From contig CADCIO010000004.1 in NCBI GenBank assembly GCA_902801475.1, forward strand, positions 13,784 through 77,783: a stretch of DNA of 64,000 bases, in the 5' to 3' direction. The stretch is from an uncultured Bacteroidales bacterium (GTDB taxonomy: Bacteria; Bacteroidota; Bacteroidia; Bacteroidales; Bacteroidaceae). Shown in pieces: positions 3,357 to 64,000 of the stretch; within the stretch, counting starts at the first letter, position 1, and each line of letters opens with the position of its first letter. The notes under the pieces are model-generated. The model made no database searches and was not told the origin of the DNA. It worked only from the letters and a program-made list of their open reading frames with translations. Both the position numbers and the translations under genes were made by a program.

Positions 3357-4550
3357 ATGGAAAATCTTTCAGATCGTCTTAACAGACTTTCCCCTTCTGC
3401 CACTCTCGCAATGAGTCAGAAGAGCTCCGAGCTGAAAGCTCAGGGCGTGGATGTGATTAACCTTAGTGTCGGCGAACCCGACTTCAACACTCCCGACCAC
3501 ATCAAGGCTGCTGCCATCAAGGCAGTGGAGGAGAACTGGAGCCGCTACAGCCCAGTGCCTGGTTACCCAGAACTGAAACAAGCCATCGTGAACAAGCTCA
3601 AGAACGAGAACGGACTCGACTACAAGCCCTCTCAGATTCTCTGCTCGAACGGTGCCAAGCAGTCTGTCTGCAACACCATCATGGCGATTATCAATGCAGG
3701 TGACGAGGTCATCATCCCAGCACCTTACTGGGTGTCTTACCCTCAGATGGTGCTCCTGGCTGAAGGTACTCCTGTATTCATCGATGCACCTATCGAACAG
3801 GACTTCAAGATCACCCCAGCACAGTTGGAGGCTGCCATCACACCTAAGACCCGTGCCCTCATCCTCTGCTCACCCAGCAACCCAACCGGTTCTGTCTATA
3901 GCAAGGAAGAGCTCGAAGGACTCAAGAACGTGCTGCTGAAGCATGAGAATGTCATCGTGATTGCCGATGAGATTTATGAGCACATCAACTATGTGGGCAA
4001 GCACGCTTCAATGGCTTCGTTCGACGACATCAAGGATCGTGTGGTGGTCATCAATGGTGTGTCTAAGGCTTATGCAATGACAGGTTGGCGTATTGGTTTC
4101 ATCGCTGCTCCTGAGTGGATTGTGAAGGGCTGCAACAAGCTTCAGGGTCAGTACACCTCTGGTCCTTGCTCTGTGTCTCAGAAAGCTGCTGAAGCTGCAT
4201 TCTCTGGCGACCAGCAGTGTGTGGAGGATATGCGTCAGGCCTTCGAACGCAGAAAGAACCTCATTGTGAAACTCGCCAAGGAGATTCCTGGTCTTGAGGT
4301 GAACGACCCACAAGGTGCCTTCTACCTCTTCCCCAAGTGCTCCAGCTACTTCGGCAAGAAGGATGGCGACCGTGTCATCAACAACTCCACCGACTTCGCC
4401 ATGTACCTGCTCGAGGTGGGTCACGTAGCCACAGTGGGTGGTGATGCCTTCGGCTCTCCTGAGTGCTTCCGCATGAGCTATGCGACCAGCGATGAGAACA
4501 TCGTGGAGTCCATGAAGCGCATCAAGGAAACTTTGGCACGTCTGAAATAG
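3357..4550 (+). CDS. class I pyridoxal-phosphate aminotransferase (aspartate aminotransferase-like)
   Basis: 397-aa ORF with the PLP-lysine context 'NGVSKAYAMTGWRIGF', 'LCSPSNPTG', and a typical AspAT length. Confidence 0.85.
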   Translation: MENLSDRLNRLSPSATLAMSQKSSELKAQGVDVINLSVGEPDFNTPDHIKAAAIKAVEENWSRYSPVPGYPELKQAIVNKLKNENGLDYKPSQILCSNGAKQSVCNTIMAIINAGDEVIIPAPYWVSYPQMVLLAEGTPVFIDAPIEQDFKITPAQLEAAITPKTRALILCSPSNPTGSVYSKEELEGLKNVLLKHENVIVIADEIYEHINYVGKHASMASFDDIKDRVVVINGVSKAYAMTGWRIGFIAAPEWIVKGCNKLQGQYTSGPCSVSQKAAEAAFSGDQQCVEDMRQAFERRKNLIVKLAKEIPGLEVNDPQGAFYLFPKCSSYFGKKDGDRVINNSTDFAMYLLEVGHVATVGGDAFGSPECFRMSYATSDENIVESMKRIKETLARLK

Positions 4551-4567
4551 TTGACAATTGACAGTTT
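4551..4567. repeat. heptamer word array TTGACAA-TTGACAG-TTT filling the aminotransferase|4568 spacer
   Basis: Read directly. It is complementary (13/14) to part of the array at 6859-6884. Confidence 0.8.
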
Positions 4568-6994
4568 ATGAAGAAACTGCTAACCATAGCCCTCTTGGCA
4601 TTGGCTCTATCGGTCAATGCTCAAGAGGGTTTTGTGTCTTATACAGAGGGCGTCATCACAGCTGATTTCGTCCCTGAAGGCACCATGAAGCAAGACCTCT
4701 TGCAGATGTTGGCAGATTTCTCCACTTATATGGTCAACGACTGGCAAGAGTGTGAATATCCCAACGACCTTGGTGAGGCGTGTGGCTGTTTCAAGGGCGA
4801 GAACACGATGGCGAACGACGAACGTGGTGTGCGACCCAATGCCGACCTCTCCATGATTTGCGCTTTCTTGGTGAAGTATGGAAAGCCTACCAACGTCAAA
4901 CTGCCCGATGGGGTGAGTTGGGAGAGGCTCGAAGAATTGGCAAGGAAGTCGCTGGTCTTCGCTTATTCCACTCACAAGGCCAATCGGTTGAAAGTTTGCA
5001 AGGGCAACAACTATTGGGGTTCCACTTCCAAGTCAGATGCTGTGTGGGAGTCATCCCTCTGGGCGATGTCTGTGGCTTATTCCGCCTTCTTCCAATGGGA
5101 ACGACTCAGCGAAGCACAAAAGGGGTATGTCTATGCCCTGCTGAAGGCCGAATGCAACTACGAACTGGAACGCTCGATTCCTACCGGTTATGCTGGTGAC
5201 ACGAAAGCCGAAGAGAATGGTTGGGAGGCAGATGTATTGGCTGCCACTTTAGGACTTTTCCCCAACGACCCATTGGCACCTCAATGGTTTGAACGATTAA
5301 GGGCATTTGCCATCAACAGCTATTCACACCCCTCTGACAAAGAGAATCAGCAGGTCATCGACCCTTGGTATGACAACAAGACGGTGGCAGACCTCTATCA
5401 AGGGCAAAACCTCTACGACGACTATTCCCTCCAGAACCATAACCTCTTTCATACCTCTTACCAGAATGTGGTGATGCAGGAACTGGGCGAAGCTGCTTTG
5501 GCACTCAAGATGTTCCAACAGGGACTGTATGGGGAAGAGAAGTGGAAGACCCGTGCCCTGATGCACCACAACCAAGAGGTGCAGGACAGCATCCTCAACT
5601 GGCTCGCGCTGGCTGATGGCGAACTGGCAATGCCCAACGGCAACGACTGGAGTCTCTTCCTCTACGACCAAATCACGAGCTACACCACCCAAGCCTGTTT
5701 CCAGCGTGATCCCAATGCGTTGATGCTGGAGAATATGGCATACAAATATATCAAGGCACGTCAGAAGACCACTTCTGACGGTTCATGGCTCTTGCGTCCT
5801 GATGTAGGGGCAAGGCGTATGGGTGTGGAAGCCCATCGTGTGATGATGACTTACCTGATGCACGATGTACTTTCAACGGCAGACCTCAAACCCACCCGAT
5901 GGAAAGACTTCAACAAGACCTACAGCGAGGCAAAGATTCTTCCTTGCCAGAACATCGTACGTGCAGCTTCTGACGACCGCTTCACCTGCTTCTCTTGGAG
6001 CGAGGGCTTGAAGTCCTACACAGGTTATTTTGCTGCCAACTCCCCCGACAAGAACAAGATTGTAGTGCCCTATCGTGCCCACAACACAGGCAATTTACTG
6101 GGCTGGTACGAGGTGGAGGGTAAGAAAACAGATGCAGCACCCATTCCTAACTATCAACTCTCAACCCTCAACTGTCAACTCAGCGGCAACAGCTATGTGA
6201 TGAATGGTGAACTGAACACGAACGAAGGCACACTCAACCATCGCTTCGTCCTATACTCTACTCCCAAGAACGCCCTCATCTACCTCGACTACGTGACTGC
6301 CAACACGGATGCCACCATCACAGCAGCAAAGGGAGGCATGCTTGCCATCTCCACCGACGAGCTGATGAAGACCTCGCGTACATTATATTATAATGGGGGG
6401 AAACAGACAACGGATGGTTCGCAAATGGTCACCTTTGAAAGCAACTGGGTGAATATCGATAACGAGTTAGGAGTCATTAAAATAGTTGATAGTGGACAGT
6501 TGACAGTTGATAGTTCCATGCGGGCCATAAAGAAGCAAGGCGGTAGCCAACTATCAACTGTCAACTATCAACTATCAACTCCAATGGCTTTTGGCGATAG
6601 AAGCACCAACAATTCCATCTTCACCTCGAAGCTCTATCCCCTCTATTCCAACACCCCACGCACTGTCAAGGCAGGCGAGGTGGTTGATGCCCGCAACCTG
6701 GTCTATTACAGTCGCATCAATGCCAAGCAGACCCAGAAGATGGCATCCAAACTCGTTTCCCTGGAAGACCAGTTGCCCGAAGGTTGGAATGGTGTCATTG
6801 TACCCGATGCCGGCTGTTCCTATCTGCTCATCAGCAACTTCAAAGGCGAGAACACCATCAATTGTCAATTGTCAACTGTCAACTGGAACGACTGGAAGCC
6901 TGTCTTCCCAGAATCCACCCACATCAACAAAAATGGTTCCACTACCACATTGTCTGTGGAGCAGAACCATTCTATCGTGTTTATCCGTAGATAG
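4568..6994 (+). CDS. secreted protein of unknown function containing in-frame heptamer-repeat insertions
   Basis: 808-aa ORF with a signal peptide 'MKKLLTIALLALALSVNAQ'. The N-terminal two-thirds is Trp/Tyr-rich and helical-looking, and the C-terminal third looks like a beta-sandwich. A carbohydrate-active (lyase/hydrolase-like) fold is only a guess. The ORF reads through repeat blocks at 6149-6181, 6484-6580 and 6859-6884. Confidence 0.7.
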   Translation: MKKLLTIALLALALSVNAQEGFVSYTEGVITADFVPEGTMKQDLLQMLADFSTYMVNDWQECEYPNDLGEACGCFKGENTMANDERGVRPNADLSMICAFLVKYGKPTNVKLPDGVSWERLEELARKSLVFAYSTHKANRLKVCKGNNYWGSTSKSDAVWESSLWAMSVAYSAFFQWERLSEAQKGYVYALLKAECNYELERSIPTGYAGDTKAEENGWEADVLAATLGLFPNDPLAPQWFERLRAFAINSYSHPSDKENQQVIDPWYDNKTVADLYQGQNLYDDYSLQNHNLFHTSYQNVVMQELGEAALALKMFQQGLYGEEKWKTRALMHHNQEVQDSILNWLALADGELAMPNGNDWSLFLYDQITSYTTQACFQRDPNALMLENMAYKYIKARQKTTSDGSWLLRPDVGARRMGVEAHRVMMTYLMHDVLSTADLKPTRWKDFNKTYSEAKILPCQNIVRAASDDRFTCFSWSEGLKSYTGYFAANSPDKNKIVVPYRAHNTGNLLGWYEVEGKKTDAAPIPNYQLSTLNCQLSGNSYVMNGELNTNEGTLNHRFVLYSTPKNALIYLDYVTANTDATITAAKGGMLAISTDELMKTSRTLYYNGGKQTTDGSQMVTFESNWVNIDNELGVIKIVDSGQLTVDSSMRAIKKQGGSQLSTVNYQLSTPMAFGDRSTNNSIFTSKLYPLYSNTPRTVKAGEVVDARNLVYYSRINAKQTQKMASKLVSLEDQLPEGWNGVIVPDAGCSYLLISNFKGENTINCQLSTVNWNDWKPVFPESTHINKNGSTTTLSVEQNHSIVFIRR
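6149..6181. repeat. intragenic heptamer array AACTATC-AACTCTC-AACCCTC-AACTGTC-AACTC
   Basis: Read directly. It is translated in-frame as 'NYQLSTLNCQLS'. Confidence 0.85.
6484..6580. repeat. intragenic palindromic heptamer-array element (32-nt arms, 33-nt loop)
   Basis: Left arm 6484-6515 is AGTTGATAGTGGACAGTTGACAGTTGATAGTT. The reverse complement of the right arm 6549-6580 is AGTTGATAGTTGATAGTTGACAGTTGATAGTT. They match at 30 of 32 positions. Confidence 0.9.
6859..6884. repeat. intragenic heptamer array CAATTGT-CAATTGT-CAACTGT-CAACT
   Basis: Read directly. It is translated in-frame as 'NCQLSTVN'. Confidence 0.85.
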
Positions 6995-8293: not shown

Positions 8294-9223
8294 ATGAAGA
8301 GCATTTGTAATTTCATTGCCCGATGGATGGGCGCACTGGTGCTATTGATGGCAGTTGTGGCGATATTGTGGCCTCAACCCTTCAACGATATACCGACCTT
8401 ATGGATCAACCCGATGCTGGGACTCATCATGTTTGGAATGGGTCTGACGCTGAATGTGGAGGATTTCCGGATTGTGTTCAGTCGTCCGAAGGATGTGCTG
8501 ATTGGATGTCTGGCTCAGTTCACCATCATGCCTTTGATGGCGTGGGTGTTGGCGAAGGGGTTCCAATTGCCAGATGAACTGGCACTGGGTGTCATCTTGG
8601 TGGGCTGTTGTCCTGGTGGCACAGCCTCGAACGTGATCACCTATCTGGCGAAAGGCGATTTGGCACTCTCTGTGGGTATGACAGCCTGTTCCACCCTGCT
8701 GGCTCCGCTCATGACTCCCCTCCTCACTTGGTTGATGGCAGACACGTTTGTCGACGTAGATACATGGGGGATGCTGCTATCCATCCTGTATGTGGTCATC
8801 CTACCCATCGTGGGTGGATTCCTGATACAGAAGTTCCTGCCGAAGTTCACGAAGGAAGTGGTGGCTTATCTACCCGCTTTCTCCACGTTGATGATTACAG
8901 GTGCGGTTGGCATCGTGATAGGTCATAATGCAGGAAAGCTGCTGAGTGGGGGAATGATTGTCATCCTCGTGGTGATGCTTCATAACCTCAGTGGACTGGC
9001 TTTGGGTTATGGTCTTGGCCGTCTGCTTCGACTGTCCCATCCCAAACGTACTGCCATCAGCATCGAGGTGGGTATGCAGAACAGCGGCTTGGCTTGTTCA
9101 CTGGCTGCGACACACTTTGCCGCTTCACCTATGGCCACTATCCCAGGCGCCATCTTCAGTGTATGGCACAACATCAGCGGCGCGCTGGTGGCGAAGCTGT
9201 ATGCGATGAGAAGTGAGAAGTAA
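8294..9223 (+). CDS. bile acid:sodium symporter (BASS) family transporter
   Basis: Multi-TM protein with '[29 protein letters not shown]' and '[10 protein letters not shown]', typical of the BASS/SBF family. The start was moved to the ATG at 8294 because the -7 box at 8267-8274 lies inside the longer ORF. Confidence 0.85.
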   Translation: [309 protein letters not shown]

Positions 9224-9255
9224 GAGGGAAGAGGGAAGAAGTAAGAAGTAAGAGG
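9221..9255. repeat. five heptamers TAAGAGG-GAAGAGG-GAAGAAG-TAAGAAG-TAAGAGG starting at the stop codon of the BASS gene
   Basis: Read directly. Confidence 0.85.
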
Positions 9256-23073: not shown

Positions 23074-23828
23074 GAAGTAAACTCCTGACTCTCGTAACAT
23101 TCACATTACTCTTGTCCTCTCTGTCAGCCTGTCACGGCATCCTCGACGAGCTCTACGACGAGCCATCGGATGAGGTGACCCTGAAAGAGGGGCAACTGTA
23201 TGTGGACGCATCCAGCTGGACAGATTGGTATTATATCGACCTGACGGATGCGAAGAAGGAATTTGTCAGGAAAGAAATCCCAACAGAAGCCACAGACTCT
23301 TTACATCGCGTTAGCCCTCCCCCTTTGGGAGCTGGGGGGCTCTACACTTATTGGTATGATGTATTTGGTGAAGGAATTTCCAAGCATGAGTTTCGAGGTT
23401 TCACGCCAACAGATAAACAGCCCGAACCCGAGTCTTGGCATATCGCTGTTCATCGCAATAACGTGAGGACGAATGGTGGTGCTGTGTATGAGACTTCCTA
23501 CACCTCAATGAATGATCTGCCTGAAAGCAGCGAGGCATTTGCTGATGCCACCTTCACGGAAGATGAATGGAATGAACTGGACGTGTGGACAGTTCAGGCA
23601 CAGATGCTGCAAGGACTCATTGGCAATCAAGGCATCAAAATCAACCCAGTGTTGTCCTCGTGGCTCAAGGTGTCGCTTCCCCCTGTACCACCAGTATTCA
23701 CCCTCAACAATCACGTGTTCATCGTTCGTTTCGAAGACGGCACTTATGCTGCCATCCAATTAGAGAACTACCAGAATGCAGCAGGGGTGAAATGCCACCT
23801 TACTATTAATTATAAGTACCCGTTTTGA
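23070..23828 (+). CDS. HmuY-family (heme-binding) lipoprotein
   Basis: 252 aa with lipobox 'LSSLSAC'. 'WHIAVHRNNVRTNGGAVYET' matches the HmuY-family core motif. An ATGA start/stop overlap links it to the upstream gene. Confidence 0.65.
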   Translation: MRSKLLTLVTFTLLLSSLSACHGILDELYDEPSDEVTLKEGQLYVDASSWTDWYYIDLTDAKKEFVRKEIPTEATDSLHRVSPPPLGAGGLYTYWYDVFGEGISKHEFRGFTPTDKQPEPESWHIAVHRNNVRTNGGAVYETSYTSMNDLPESSEAFADATFTEDEWNELDVWTVQAQMLQGLIGNQGIKINPVLSSWLKVSLPPVPPVFTLNNHVFIVRFEDGTYAAIQLENYQNAAGVKCHLTINYKYPF

Positions 23829-23864
23829 AAGTTGAAAGTTGAGAGTCGATAGTTGAGAGTTTGA
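23826..23864. repeat. heptamer array TGAAAGT-TGAAAGT-TGAGAGT-CGATAGT-TGAGAGT-TTGA filling the hmuY|TonB-receptor spacer
   Basis: Read directly. It starts at the hmuY stop codon and ends at the receptor ATG. Confidence 0.85.
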
Positions 23865-32043: not shown

Positions 32044-33351
32044 ATGACAACACCATTAGATTATACGATTGTGACCGATGCCATCGAGGGGATGGGGCTG
32101 GGCGACTTCTCGCAGGCCACCATCCGTGACATCCAATCACTCTCGAAAGTGCTGGAAGAAAAGACGGGACAGACGGTCATCCATCTGGAGATGGGTGTGC
32201 CAGGTCTGCAGCCTTCGGACATCGCCATCAAAGCAGAACAAGAGGCGTTGCAGAACGGTTGCGCCACCATCTACCCTCCCAACGGCGGTATTCCACGCAT
32301 CAAGAACGCGGCTTCGCGTTTCGTCAAGGCATTCATCGGAGTGGACATCGACCCACTCTGCTGCATCCCCACCACAGGTTCGATGCAGGGTACTTTTGCT
32401 GTCTTCACGGCTTGGCACCACGCCATGCCTGAGAAGGACACCGTGCTGTTCATCCATCCCGGTTTCCCTGTACAGACCTCGCAATGCGACGTGATTGGCT
32501 TGAAACATATCGGCTTGGACATTCACGACTATCGCGGTGATGCGCTCGTTGAGAAGCTGGAAGAGATCCTGTCGGCAGGCAACATCTGTGGTATTGTCTA
32601 TTCAAACCCCAACAACCCATCATGGGTATGCTTCAATGAGGAAGAGCTGAAGGGCATCGCCATGTTGGCAGACAAGCACGACTGCATCATCCTGGAAGAC
32701 CTCGCTTACTTCGCGATGGACTTCCGCAGGGATCTGAGTCATCCGTTCGAAGCACCTTATCAGGCTACGGTGGCAAGATATACAGACAAGTACATCTTGG
32801 CCGTGTCGGGCTCGAAGGCATTCTCGTATGCGGGTCAACGCATCGGTGTGGCTTGTATCAGCAACACCCTCTACCACCGTGTCTATCCTGCTTTGGAGCA
32901 GAACTTTGGCGTGGGTGAGTTCGGAAACTTCTTCTGCAACCGACTGATGTACACGCTCAGTAGCGGTACGACACATAGTGTGCAGCACGCAATGGCAGCG
33001 CTGATGGAAGCAGCTTGTGACGGTCAGTACAACTTCTTGGCTGATGTACGCGAGTATGGCAGAAGAGCCAAGTATATGAAGGACGTGCTCCTGACCAACG
33101 GCTTCTACCTCGTGTATGACAACGACATGGGCGCACCCTTAGCTGACGGTTTCTACTTTACGGTACAGTACCCAGGCATGACTGACCTCCAACTGACACG
33201 TGAACTGATGTACTATGGCATTGCCGTGTTCCCGCTCGACACGATGGGTTCGAACGAACAAGGCGTGCGCATATGTACCTCGTTCTTCTCAAAGGAACAG
33301 GAGCCGATGTTTAAAGAGAGAATAGAAAGTTTCAATCGTAATCATTCATAA
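32044..33351 (+). CDS. class I/II pyridoxal-phosphate aminotransferase
   Basis: 435 aa with 'VSGSKAFSYAGQRIG' (PLP-lysine context) and 'YSNPNNPSW'. It is embedded between the two PaaK paralogs. Confidence 0.8.
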   Translation: MTTPLDYTIVTDAIEGMGLGDFSQATIRDIQSLSKVLEEKTGQTVIHLEMGVPGLQPSDIAIKAEQEALQNGCATIYPPNGGIPRIKNAASRFVKAFIGVDIDPLCCIPTTGSMQGTFAVFTAWHHAMPEKDTVLFIHPGFPVQTSQCDVIGLKHIGLDIHDYRGDALVEKLEEILSAGNICGIVYSNPNNPSWVCFNEEELKGIAMLADKHDCIILEDLAYFAMDFRRDLSHPFEAPYQATVARYTDKYILAVSGSKAFSYAGQRIGVACISNTLYHRVYPALEQNFGVGEFGNFFCNRLMYTLSSGTTHSVQHAMAALMEAACDGQYNFLADVREYGRRAKYMKDVLLTNGFYLVYDNDMGAPLADGFYFTVQYPGMTDLQLTRELMYYGIAVFPLDTMGSNEQGVRICTSFFSKEQEPMFKERIESFNRNHS

Positions 33352-33400
33352 GACCTATAAGTCCTATAAGACCTATAAGACCTATAAGCCCCATAAAACC
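33347..33400. repeat. six 9-mers (C/T)ATAA(G/A)NCC filling the aminotransferase|paaK-2 spacer
   Basis: CATAAGACC-TATAAGTCC-TATAAGACC-TATAAGACC-TATAAGCCC-CATAAAACC, read directly. The first unit contains the stop codon. Confidence 0.85.
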
Positions 33401-33409
33401 AAAACTCTA

Positions 33410-34726
33410 ATGGACGATAAATCACCTTACTTTCATCCGCAGTACGAGACACTCTCGCACGAGGAGATTAAGAAGCTGCAGCTGGAACGGCTGCAGGCAA
33501 CGGTGAAGCATTGCATGAACTCACCGTTTTACAAGAAACGTTTTGAGGAAATCGGATTGAAACCAGAGGACATCAAGAGCCTCGATGACATCCGTAAGAT
33601 TCCTTTTACCACCAAACAAGACCTGAGAGACACCTACCCCTTTGGCATAGCCAGTGCGCCTCTCCGTCAGTGTGTACGTCTGCACTCTTCATCGGGTACG
33701 ACGGGTAATCCAACCGTGATTCTGCACACACAGAAAGACCTTGACGAGTGGTCGAACCAAGTGGCACGTAACCTCTGGATGGTGGGACTACGCCCCGATG
33801 ACGTGTTCCAGAACTCCTCTGGTTACGGCATGTTCACAGGCGGTCTCGGTTTCCAGTATGGTGCTGAGAAGTTGGGTATGCTCACTGTGCCAGCAGCAGC
33901 TGGTAACTCCCTGCGTCAGATCAAGTTCATCAAGGACTTTGGCACTACAGCCATTCACGCTGTGCCCAGCTACCTAACCCGTCTCTATGAGGTGATGCAG
34001 TCTGAAGGTGTTGACCCACGCAAGGACACGAAGCTGAAGGTGCTTGCCATCGGTGCTGAGCCTCACTCGGAAGAACAGCGCAAGCGCATCGAGGAGATGA
34101 TGGGCGCGAAGGCTTACAACTCGTTCGGCATGAGTGAGATGTGTGGCCCAGGCGTTGGTTTTGAGTGCCCAGAGCAGAACGGTTTGCACTTCTGGGAAGA
34201 CTACTATATCGTGGAAATTGTTGACCCTGATACCCTGGAGCCAGTGCCAGAGGGTGAAATCGGTGAACTGGTGCTCACCACCCTTTGCCGTGAAGCGATG
34301 CCATTGCTCCGCTATCGTACCAGAGACCTGACCCGTGTACTGGGACACACTTGTCCTTGTGGACGTAACCACGTACGTCTCGACCGCATGCGTGGACGTT
34401 CCGACGACATGATGGTGCTGCGTGGTGTGAACATCTTCCCCATCCAAATTGAGAAGATTCTGATGCAGTTCAAGGAACTCGCCAGCAACTACCTCATCAC
34501 TTTGACCACTGACGAGGACAACGACAACATGACCGTAGAGGTGGAACTCGAAGAACTCTTCACAGATGACTACCAGCGCCTCATTGCCTTGCAGAAGGAG
34601 ATCAAGCGCCGACTGAAGGACGAAATCCTCCTCACCCCTCATGTAAAACTCGTGCCTAAGGGCAGCCTGCCTGTGAGCGAAGGAAAAGCCGTGAGAGTGG
34701 TAGATAAGAGAAAAGTGTATCAATAA
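33410..34726 (+). CDS. phenylacetate-CoA ligase family protein (paralog 2)
   Basis: 438 aa with 'LHSSSGTTGNP' and 'FGMSEMCGPGV...YRTRDL'. It aligns collinearly with 30692..32008. Confidence 0.88.
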   Translation: MDDKSPYFHPQYETLSHEEIKKLQLERLQATVKHCMNSPFYKKRFEEIGLKPEDIKSLDDIRKIPFTTKQDLRDTYPFGIASAPLRQCVRLHSSSGTTGNPTVILHTQKDLDEWSNQVARNLWMVGLRPDDVFQNSSGYGMFTGGLGFQYGAEKLGMLTVPAAAGNSLRQIKFIKDFGTTAIHAVPSYLTRLYEVMQSEGVDPRKDTKLKVLAIGAEPHSEEQRKRIEEMMGAKAYNSFGMSEMCGPGVGFECPEQNGLHFWEDYYIVEIVDPDTLEPVPEGEIGELVLTTLCREAMPLLRYRTRDLTRVLGHTCPCGRNHVRLDRMRGRSDDMMVLRGVNIFPIQIEKILMQFKELASNYLITLTTDEDNDNMTVEVELEELFTDDYQRLIALQKEIKRRLKDEILLTPHVKLVPKGSLPVSEGKAVRVVDKRKVYQ

Positions 34727-40892: not shown

Positions 40893-40925
40893 CACCCAAC
40901 CAGCCTATGGGCTGGGCGATTCTTT

Positions 40926-40960
40926 AAACTCTAAACACTAAACTTTAAATTTTATAATAA
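40926..40960. repeat. heptamer array AAACTCT-AAACACT-AAACTTT-AAATTTT-ATAATAA in the uxuA 5' UTR
   Basis: Read directly. It ends 4 nt before the uxuA ATG. Confidence 0.75.
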
Positions 40961-52406: not shown

Positions 52407-52466
52407 TAACTTCTAACCACTAACCTCCCAACTCTATAACCTCTAACCCATAACCTATAACCCCTC
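52407..52466. repeat. heptamer array (TAACTTC-TAACCAC-TAACCTC-CCAACTC-TATAACC-TCTAACC-CATAACC-TATAACC) in the ftsQ|ftsA spacer
   Basis: Read directly. Confidence 0.8.
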
Positions 52467-57239: not shown

Positions 57240-57270
57240 ATCATCGTTCTTTATATTTTGTTCTTATCTT

Positions 57271-57393
57271 AAAATGACGTCGTTTGGACTCTTGTAATGA
57301 TTACGAGCCTTTAAAACGGGGTCGTTTTGACCTTCGTAACGATTACGAACCTTTAAAACGAGGTCGTTTGGGCCTTTGTAACGACTACATTAC
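57271..57393. repeat. three tandem ~42-bp units with internal dyads in the murD|ftsW spacer
   Basis: The units are 57271-57312, 57313-57354 and 57355-57393, with consensus AAAACGNGGTCGTTT..C.T.GTAACGATTACGA.CCTTT. Each contains AAACGA-NN-TCGTTT-like and CGTAA-N3-TTACG-like dyads. The last unit overlaps the murD stop. Confidence 0.85.
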
Positions 57394-60045: not shown

Positions 60046-60129
60046 TCTCTTACCTCTTACCTCTAACTTCTAACTTCTTACCTCTAACTTCTTACCTCTT
60101 ACTTCTCACCTCTTCCTTCTTACCTCTCC
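60046..60129. repeat. twelve consecutive heptamers CYTCTYA in the murE|mraY spacer
   Basis: TCTCTTA-CCTCTTA-CCTCTAA-CTTCTAA-CTTCTTA-CCTCTAA-CTTCTTA-CCTCTTA-CTTCTCA-CCTCTTC-CTTCTTA-CCTCTCC. On the mRNA (minus) strand these read as GGTAAGA/GTTAGAG-type purine words. Confidence 0.9.
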
Positions 60130-61585: not shown

Positions 61586-61623
61586 TAATTTTCAATTTTC
61601 AATTCTCAATTTTCAATTTTCAA
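61586..61623. repeat. heptamer array TAATTTT-CAATTTT-CAATTCT-CAATTTT-CAATTTT-CAA filling the ftsI|murE spacer
   Basis: Read directly. On the mRNA strand it reads TTGAAAA/TTGAGAA, with a TGA in every unit. Confidence 0.9.
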
Positions 61624-63828: not shown

Positions 63829-64000
63829 TACCCTTCTGTTTTTAACGTGTCTTTTTTCTCTTCCTGTTTCACTTCTTCCTTCTTTCCACTTCCATCATCC
63901 TTTTTCTCTTCCATCTTCACCTCTTCTTTCTTCCCTTCCAGCATCTCCTCCTCTTGCGGTGCCAGTTCTTGGGAATCCACCAGCACCTCTTCTGGCAGGT
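63828..64000 (-). CDS. C-terminal part of an FtsL-like / hypothetical dcw protein (truncated by the window edge)
   Basis: An open frame runs to the window end and translates to '...LPEEVLVDSQELAPQEEEMLEGKKEEVKMEEKKDDGSGKKEEVKQEEKKDTLKTEG*'. Its TAA shares one nt with the ftsI ATG. The function is assigned by position only. Confidence 0.45.
   Translation of the reverse strand, partial: LPEEVLVDSQELAPQEEEMLEGKKEEVKMEEKKDDGSGKKEEVKQEEKKDTLKTEG

Follow-up and report, generated by a model that had tools for sequence, protein, structure and literature searches.

Tandem repeats of head-to-tail 7-nt units are familiar from cyanobacteria, where the STRR heptamer repeats form a class comparable to the one considered here. 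We analyzed a 64,000-nt stretch of DNA from an uncultured Bacteroidales bacterium (GenBank assembly GCA_902801475.1, contig CADCIO010000004.1, positions 13,784 to 77,783 of the forward strand), referred to throughout as the window, in which one gene for a secreted protein carries four heptamer arrays within its open reading frame (ORF), two of them forming the arms of a long hairpin. In the account that a later article gives of earlier work, heptanucleotide repeats are the most abundant class of long simple sequence repeats (LSSRs), and polymerase slippage is proposed for them (Mrazek et al., 2007, via PMC4679880). In Beggiatoaceae, Cyanobacteria and five Bacteroidetes, arrays of the heptamer TAACTGA occur shortly before start codons (MacGregor, 2015, PMC4679880). 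Their forward copies carry stops in all frames, while intragenic copies are reverse-oriented and located at the protein periphery (PMC4679880). A second system is palindromic: as summarized in a review, the Rickettsia palindromic elements (RPEs) are palindromes of ~100-150 bp found in frame within unrelated protein-coding genes, where they encode a peptide compatible with the fold (Ogata et al., 2000, reviewed in PMC10969869).

The locus described here combines features of the TAACTGA heptamer arrays and the RPEs. With the LSSRs of the cited account and with the STRR repeats it shares head-to-tail 7-nt units, an excess over neighbouring periods, restriction to a lineage, a mostly intergenic placement and a proposed role of slippage; it differs in its many unit sequences around a loose consensus, its short and uniform arrays of ~32 nt, the ~30% of arrays that form inverted pairs with 30-bp stems, and the presence of four arrays in frame in one gene. 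As with the TAACTGA repeats, heptamer arrays lie just upstream of starts or overlap stops, and the forward orientation stops all frames. The TAACTGA arrays, however, have a single unit sequence, with one inverted repeat reported and no conserved intragenic hairpin described, whereas here one forward-orientation array survives in an ORF with its in-frame stops broken. The likeness to the RPEs lies in palindromic repeats placed in frame in coding genes with a fold-compatible added peptide. In contrast, each RPE family has many copies, which share a conserved sequence and encode a conserved peptide, while here the arms are tandem heptamers, unrelated sequences occupy the same site in sister genomes, and no second arm-loop-arm copy was found in the window and the related loci inspected. 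The host is a rumen Prevotella-like bacterium, a group for which targeted literature searches found no report of heptamer arrays. The reading that we favour, with moderate confidence, is that the four blocks are passenger copies of a lineage-specific heptamer-array class, held in permissive loops and filtered by the integrity of the ORF.

The host gene and its arrays are the following:

4568..6994, plus strand: host gene, an 808-aa ORF with a signal-peptide-like N-terminus, encoding a secreted protein

6149..6181, plus strand: array 1, 4.7 units of the CAACTNT type, encoding aa 528-538 (NYQLSTLNCQL)

6482..6515, plus strand: left arm of the hairpin, 4.9 AGTTGAN units, the orientation that bears stops

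6516..6547, plus strand: hairpin loop, TCCATGCGGGCCATAAAGAAGCAAGGCGGTAG..., encoding the peptide SMRAIKKQGGS

6548..6580, plus strand: right arm of the hairpin, 4.7 CAACT(A/G)T units, the orientation free of stops

6858..6885, plus strand: array 4, four units of CAATTGT/CAACTGT, encoding aa 764-773 (INCQLSTVNW)

Tandem Repeats Finder (TRF) places four period-7 arrays inside the ORF (6149-6181, 6482-6515, 6548-6580 and 6858-6885), each of 3.6-4.9 copies, with imperfect unit matches of about 80-95%. The inverted repeat 6484-6515 / 6549-6580 is complementary at 30 of 32 positions (94%), its arms being 33 nt apart, and RNA spanning 6473-6590 folds at a minimum free energy of -52.5 kcal/mol, compared with -22.8 +/- 3.3 in dinucleotide shuffles (z = -9.0); none of 200 shuffles folded as stably. 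The word CAACTRTCAACT, allowing at most one mismatch, occurs 15 times in the window where 0.74 occurrences are expected, with 11 of the matches inside the ORF, 1 in the upstream spacer at 4549-4560 and 2 at 23830-23855. The arrays are real and not assembly artefacts, identical sequences being present in independent ENA, JGI, Logan and metagenome-assembled genome assemblies. An earlier note on this DNA had described the ORF, the four arrays, the 30/32 inverted repeat with a 33-nt loop, and two mismatched bases, G6494 and C6497, that avoid TGA and TAG; TRF, complementarity and codon reading agree with it on all of these facts. At gathering thresholds Rfam returned three tRNAs in the window and nothing on its hairpins, and no terminator-like site was found at the hairpin.

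Stop content differs with the orientation of an array. CAACTNT is free of stops in all three frames, while AGTTGAN carries TGA, as the earlier note had stated, and at three or more AGTTGAN units a TGA is present in every frame. A forward arm therefore survives in an ORF only if one unit is altered per 21 nt. Were it fully complementary to the right arm, the left arm would run GTT GAT AGT TGA TAG TTG, with an in-frame TGA and TAG. The left arm is kept open by G6494 (TGA to GGA) and C6497 (TAG to CAG), both first codon positions, and it terminates exactly where the next in-frame TGA would come (AGT TCC). G6494 is unchanged across seven aligned hairpin-bearing orthologues; C6497 is invariant too, and is C-G paired in five of the seven. 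In the window and in L001 (related loci are given L numbers), the right-arm partner of C6497 is now A instead of G (CAACTGT to CAACTAT, Cys to Tyr), and a compensating C-to-T at 6497 would produce TAG. Moreover, AGTGGAC/AGTGGAA units lie beside AGTTGAT units on L170, an unrelated and apparently non-coding contig. Given the invariance of G6494 and the presence of AGTGGAC units in arrays that seem to be non-coding, the earlier proposal of an insertion followed by repair is inseparable from one in which only a stop-free variant could be fixed, and the C6497 mismatch itself stems from the right-arm change. The coincidence of mismatches and stops is real, and it is the outcome that purifying selection on an ORF must yield. 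The hairpin insert is in frame and stop-free in every copy. A translational-bypass ('byp'-like) insert was considered and rejected, as no copy has a frame interruption or stops.

The host protein has 1,546 protein matches as homologues, and type IX secretion system (T9SS) or dockerin tails are often present in its relatives. An AlphaFold model built from 52 sequences (mean predicted local distance difference test score, pLDDT, 86.6; predicted template modelling score, pTM, 0.88) comprises an N-terminal helical (alpha/alpha) toroid at residues 37-451 and a C-terminal beta-sandwich at 456-807. Its Foldseek neighbours are polysaccharide lyases of families PL8, PL17, PL15 and PL12, with E-values down to 1e-11. 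The protein is predicted to adopt a polysaccharide-lyase-like fold, an assignment that comes entirely from AlphaFold and Foldseek, as sequence searches of Pfam, NCBIfam and the PDB gave no match. Model confidence falls below a pLDDT of 50 only at residues 14-21 (the signal-peptide region), 528-533 (block 1) and 642-668 (the hairpin), and ranges from 53 to 66 around block 4 (residues 761-780). The hairpin insert at 642-668 sits between the modelled strands E634-639 and E673-681. As to the earlier note's question of whether the inserted peptides map to surface loops, the array-encoded peptides fall, in this model, in low-confidence loops of the beta-sandwich that appear to be permissive positions.

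Orthologues place these blocks in an evolutionary context. Between the conserved motifs NIDNELGVI and AFGDR, at the central loop, 70 of the 80 orthologues in a species-level comparison of 80 genomes have 7-10 residues (e.g. SSGNGKK), compared with 38 aa in the window; the 8-29 extra residues are present only in the window, L001-L009 and close relatives. The distribution marks the blocks as a derived state, and the alignment that the earlier note had proposed finds a turn of 7-10 aa in distant orthologues, not the same peptide encoded by non-repetitive DNA. What fills the enlarged loop varies. An AGTTGAC-type hairpin is present in the window, L001, L081, L082 and L084-L087; L008 has an AAATGTC/ACATTTA hairpin, L007 TCAAACC heptamers, L009 AACCAT with CTCAACC, and L003, L005 and L006 AACCCT hexamers with a short G-rich fold-back. 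The L088 array has collapsed to a two-unit remnant, and L004 and L002 hold a decayed AGTTGAC hairpin whose left arm is lost, the gene still being intact. The ancestral turn is retained in none of the enlarged central loops. Since sisters hold different repeats with no remnant of that turn, the history that needs the fewest assumptions is a single old replacement with rapid turnover after it. The hairpin loop sequence is not derived from the ancestral SSGNGKK turn; the idea that it is that turn reversed was dismissed, sequence reversal having no known mechanism.

The DNA that the arrays replaced can be read from the outgroups: at block 1 they have GGC ATC TAT CAA CTC AAG, at the central loop ATC TCA ACC, and at block 4 ACC AAC TTG AAA CTG AAA. 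Array 1 stands in for a turn whose ancestral form, VV(S/K)G(N/I)Y(Q/L)L, already contained the seed CTATCAACT, and the array state at this site is found in part of the close clade only. Array 4 stands in for the ancestral TATLTNLKLKG, where the DNA (CAACTTG AAACTGA) was already quasi-period-7. At blocks 1 and 4 the change is one of replacement, with net changes of +15, +3 or +6 nt. The suggestion that an intergenic-type element had inserted into the gene thus stands insofar as the blocks are a derived, DNA-level repeat that distant orthologues lack, but not as a description of blocks 1 and 4, which are no clean insertions, having replaced seed-bearing sequence. Among strains, the three array sites show a mosaic of states, a pattern that indicates recombination. 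Within the block-4 array, an identical 33-nt in-frame insertion, AGGCTACGGGTAGGCGAGCAAAGCTCGGGAATA, is present in L082 (5303-5330), L083 (5303-5330) and L008 (12255-12282), at a point equivalent to ~6868 in the window. It holds a small CGAGC-AAA-GCTCG hairpin, its carriers differ elsewhere in the gene, and it recalls the small dispersed repeats that insert into cyanobacterial heptamer arrays.

Growth of an array in place can be followed at another beta-sandwich loop (window aa ~487-497), in a more distant clade of the same protein family:

L124 3932-3988 and L126 2368-2424: TTCAACG array of 2 units

L125 3739-3816 and L127 3932-4009: TTCAACG array of 5 units

The two states differ by exactly +21 nt, and at the level of sequence comparison 2 versus 5 units is direct evidence of in-frame expansion in place. 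Other low-complexity inserts occupy the same loop site in L129 and L131. A fourth variable loop (window aa 609-619, about 6392-6425) has no array in the window; it carries GCAAGGA-type heptamer arrays in L001 (11787-11814) and L086 (2069-2099), and a short insert, KGATTTKQQ, in L084, L087, L003 and L005.

Substitutions within the coding arrays follow the repeat unit. In seven distinct right arms, the variable columns fall at unit position 6 (4/4) and position 4 (3/5), and they are spread evenly across codon positions (4/11, 3/11, 3/11). Because variation tracks position in the 7-nt unit and not in the codon, the constraint lies on the DNA or RNA unit and not on the peptide. The unit consensus on the coding strand, N-TCAA-Y-T, is the complement of the A-R-TTGA-N family that occupies intergenic spacers nearby, where the earlier note had placed the word family, and by the pattern of these sequences the encoded peptide appears as a passenger. 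Strains that are 94-96% identical in protein have identical loops and arms that differ by whole-unit variants, for example AGTGGAC x3 in L081, L090 and L092, which gives three G-A mismatches in the stem, and CAACTAT versus CAATTGT in the right arm. The L085 hairpin folds at only -26 kcal/mol. Two loop alleles occur among strains, and their distribution is incongruent with the phylogeny of the gene backbone. In an alignment of seven orthologues, 93% of the pair cells still pair, while a covariation test of the stem detected two both-sided changes, a value matched by 139 of 500 shuffles; as both-sided changes are no commoner than in shuffles, there is no evidence of compensatory evolution.

The coding arrays have many counterparts in related DNA. 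Over 2.08 Mb, comprising the window and 169 related loci, a uniform scan found 195 arrays of period 7. Periods 6 and 8 gave 23 and 21, and none of periods 5, 9, 10 and 11 gave more than 7. A scan for period-7 arrays, which the earlier note had proposed for the whole genome, thus yields a clear excess over this DNA. The corresponding TRF counts are 78 arrays at period 7 versus 7 at period 6 and 29 at period 8. As in the LSSR and STRR repeats, head-to-tail copies number at least 3-4. An inverted partner, at least 75% complementary and within 200 nt, accompanies 23 of the 78 TRF arrays (~30%), and a direct partner 2 of the 78; the loops between inverted pairs measure about 13-116 nt, most of them 30-92. 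Outside the host gene, array density is 12.9 per 100 kb in enlarged-loop genomes versus 3.6 per 100 kb in ancestral-loop genomes, the former amounting to 27 arrays where 7.5 would be expected at the background rate, in loci that are partly syntenic and hence not independent. Arrays of this class are typically ~30-34 nt long (~4.5 units), often form inverted pairs and are mostly intergenic. Those of the window outside the host gene are:

4549..4567, plus strand: intergenic array before the host gene, of the same family as the arrays within it, in which a TAG stop and TTGACAATTGACAGTTT make up the entire 17-nt spacer before the ATG

23825..23864, plus strand: intergenic AGTTGA-family array (period-7 array at 23825-23861), which fills the 36-nt spacer between two co-directional genes

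9207-9255, 40922-40954, 52407-52463, 60047-60127, 61587-61623 and 63859-63934: further period-7 arrays

21032-21063/21103-21134 and 38645-38674/38729-38762: other inverted array pairs

Apart from the first two entries, these window arrays have the units AAGTAAG/AGGGAAG, AAAAACT, AATTGAG, CTTTAAA, TAACCNC, CTCTTAC and AATTTTC. Several of the arrays constitute the entire spacer between co-directional genes, starting at or overlapping the upstream stop codon. The notion that intergenic arrays are oriented to give all-frame stops on the sense strand seemed right in the window and failed across loci, where, of 32 arrays, 14 are sense and 16 antisense. The 17-nt heptamer spacer before the host gene is missing in L091, L093 and L084, which have a 4-6 nt spacer instead, and its presence varies even among strains with 94% protein identity. 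In L091, the 4-nt spacer comes with a divergent end of the aminotransferase gene upstream, and a recombination breakpoint is indicated at this position.

Hairpins with heptamer arms of another type, GTGAAAA/TTTTCAC, occur at different genomic sites:

L002 5500-5615: GTGAAAA-type hairpin

L006 17815-17945 and 21200-21315: GTGAAAA-type hairpins

L096 6033-6164: GTGAAAA-type hairpin

L005 1763-1860: GTGAAAA-type hairpin

They share a loop core, ATCTAAGTTAC ... CCATYCGRATGG-like ... GTAACTTAGAT, and lie just upstream of TACCTTTGCA, which matches the Bacteroidetes -7 promoter motif TAnnTTTG. They could be a dispersed element or a promoter-upstream module. Contig L170 (1-704), a short low-coverage metagenome contig, consists almost wholly of TAGTGGT/TAGTTGA and CAACTNT arrays (~17 units); an AGTGGAC/AGTTGAT hairpin on it is followed twice by CAGGGC(T/G)TTGCCCTG and a T-run, in a terminator-like arrangement. 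Two tandem repeats of other periods also fill or occupy spacers in the window. A 9-nt array, ATAAGACCT x5.9 (33348-33400), fills the spacer between the genes at 32044..33351 and 33410..34726, and a 42-nt repeat of 2.9 copies with 82% matches (57269-57388) lies in a 150-nt spacer between two minus-strand genes.

The favoured reading, of passenger arrays, would work as follows. Arrays may nucleate on short seeds, the ancestral gene having TCAAC or CAACT at all three sites, and may in this way have colonised indel-tolerant stretches of the C-terminal beta-sandwich domain. They would then grow or shrink by strand slippage, or be overwritten through conversion from similar arrays. Homogenisation would draw the units toward a consensus, A-R-TTGA-N (on the coding strand, N-TCAA-Y-T), and recombination would shuffle alleles among co-resident strains. 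The filter would be purifying selection on the ORF, admitting either stop-free CAACTNT or an AGTTGAN arm in which the in-frame TGA and TAG are broken, and only frame-keeping changes would persist. In essence, the 32-bp stem would be a consequence of the inverted-pair architecture.

Several observations weigh against this reading. Five of the six CAACT-family arrays of the 64 kb lie in or adjoin the host gene, a clustering that independent nucleation does not explain. The hairpin loop is foreign sequence, so that insertion or replacement, and not only expansion, must lie behind the central block at least. Slippage as a model names no cause for a process that favours 7-nt units, and for a tract prone to slippage it is odd that the hairpin measures 114 nt in all copies examined. 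In distant pairs, synonymous-codon identity is 0.78-0.90 in the arms compared with 0.53-0.63 in the rest of the gene. Likewise, between L001 and L084/L086 the hairpin (6473-6586, 114 nt, loop included) is 93-98% identical, its immediate flanks are 75-83% identical, and the boundaries are sharp. Neutral slippage accounts for this conservation less well than would a young element that spreads horizontally or selection at the nucleotide level. The candidate causes are recent spread, nucleotide-level selection and recombination anchored in the arms.

The first of these possibilities, recent spread, is the basis of a serious rival for the central block, namely that it is a mobile palindromic element, resembling a miniature inverted-repeat transposable element (MITE) or an RPE, which transposed in frame after the host genes had diverged and spread between strains, its stop-free state being selected at or after insertion. 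We hold this, in effect the earlier note's interpretation confined to the central block, to be a tentative but substantial alternative. It would account for ~84 nt of net foreign sequence with 32-nt inverted termini (arms complementary at 30/32) in place of a 7-aa turn, for a hairpin with sharp edges that is more conserved than its flanks and has alleles incongruent with the backbone, and for in-frame placement at a structurally permissive position in all copies. The lineage also contains dispersed heptamer-armed hairpins, of which the GTGAAAA type keeps its loop core at different sites, and the related AGTGGAC/AGTTGAT hairpin lies on an unrelated contig, L170. However, no target-site duplication is present, the flanks being ...TTAAAAT|AGTTGA...TCAACT|CCAATG in the window and ...AGAAC|...|CAAAA in L084; the hairpin loop has no second copy in the DNA inspected, and among 1.84 billion representative proteins the hairpin peptide has only 4 matches, none in another genuine protein family (one is a fragment of this gene, one an unrelated repeat protein, and two are array-covering ORFs that seem spurious). 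Sisters with other repeat types and no remnant of the ancestral turn fit one old event and turnover better than repeated insertions, and blocks 1 and 4 are not clean insertions. A more speculative proposal, to which we assign a smaller chance, is that in some rumen Prevotella an active enzymatic or recombinational process writes and homogenises heptamer arrays of ~32 nt and duplicates them in inverted orientation. The resulting hairpins would outpace gene divergence in spreading, and the 114-nt coding hairpin would be one that was caught in a gene and kept by nucleotide-level constraint.

Selection could also act on the hairpin as a nucleic acid within the coding region, whether as an RNase III or other processing site, a ribosome pause, a DNA cruciform or a recombination site. 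The stem is very stable (z = -9), it keeps 93% of its pair cells and a constant length in seven orthologues, and the synonymous sites of the arms are conserved in distant pairs. Yet its covariation is no better than that of shuffles, three G-A mismatches are tolerated in L081, L090 and L092, the L085 copy reaches only -26 kcal/mol, L004 and L002 have an intact gene with no left arm, most orthologues have no hairpin at all, and no terminator-like feature accompanies it. A function of the stem, including an effect on the mRNA, is possible, and we regard it as an unlikely explanation of the locus. Selection on the repeat peptides themselves (QLSTVNC etc.), for instance because pressure from phages or the host favours variety in a secreted enzyme's exposed loops, is considerably less probable again: the central loop is hypervariable among strains otherwise 80-94% identical and the protein is secreted, with T9SS or dockerin tails in relatives, but variation tracks the DNA unit and not the codon, identical units occur in non-coding spacers, and the inserted peptides are modelled at low confidence. 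The target of a diversity-generating retroelement, in which adenine-specific variation would be expected, was rejected on the variable unit positions, which are C/T (4) and G/A/T/C (6) with AA at 2-3 never varying; neither a template repeat nor a reverse transcriptase was sought. Least credible of all is a contingency locus in which gain or loss of one 7-nt unit would switch the gene off or on by slipped-strand phase variation, a consequence that the earlier note had drawn from the unit length. Judged from the sequence by itself the likeness is there, as coding arrays of 4-5 units whose length is not a multiple of 3 are what slipped-strand contingency loci contain. Such loci differ from this one, where no frame-shifting variation in length was seen, where the units are imperfect (80-94% matches), which suppresses slippage, and where the arrays lie atypically in the last third of the gene. 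Block 1 measures 75 nt wherever its array is present, except in L002 (63 nt), and block 4 measures 45 nt in five window-type copies free of the 33-nt insertion. Copy number does not differ at the window's own arrays; it differs as 2 versus 5 units at the other loop, and the L088 array is down to 2 units. Among the orthologous loci examined, as assemblies in which minority variants could escape, no frameshifted or truncated copy was seen, and the gene is intact in 18 of 18 aligned close-clade copies. The only copy-number change seen in the gene family, 3 units (+21 nt), kept the frame, and the hairpin is in frame at the same length in every copy examined, so that the earlier note's suggestion of phase variation finds no support here.

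Heptamer repeats have long been known in scattered bacterial phyla, and their generation and role are still unexplained. The present locus provides a natural comparison series, with a repeat-free ancestor, seeded nucleation sites, growth by +21 nt and copies in decay. It also includes a hairpin whose conservation exceeds that of its flanks, which is the main unexplained point. The series makes the birth, growth and filtering of heptamer arrays traceable in one conserved gene. It also advises caution in annotation, since a low-complexity peptide insert in a Prevotella protein can be a DNA repeat that the ribosome has read through. As far as the host gene's own biology goes, the arrays look like tolerated passengers.

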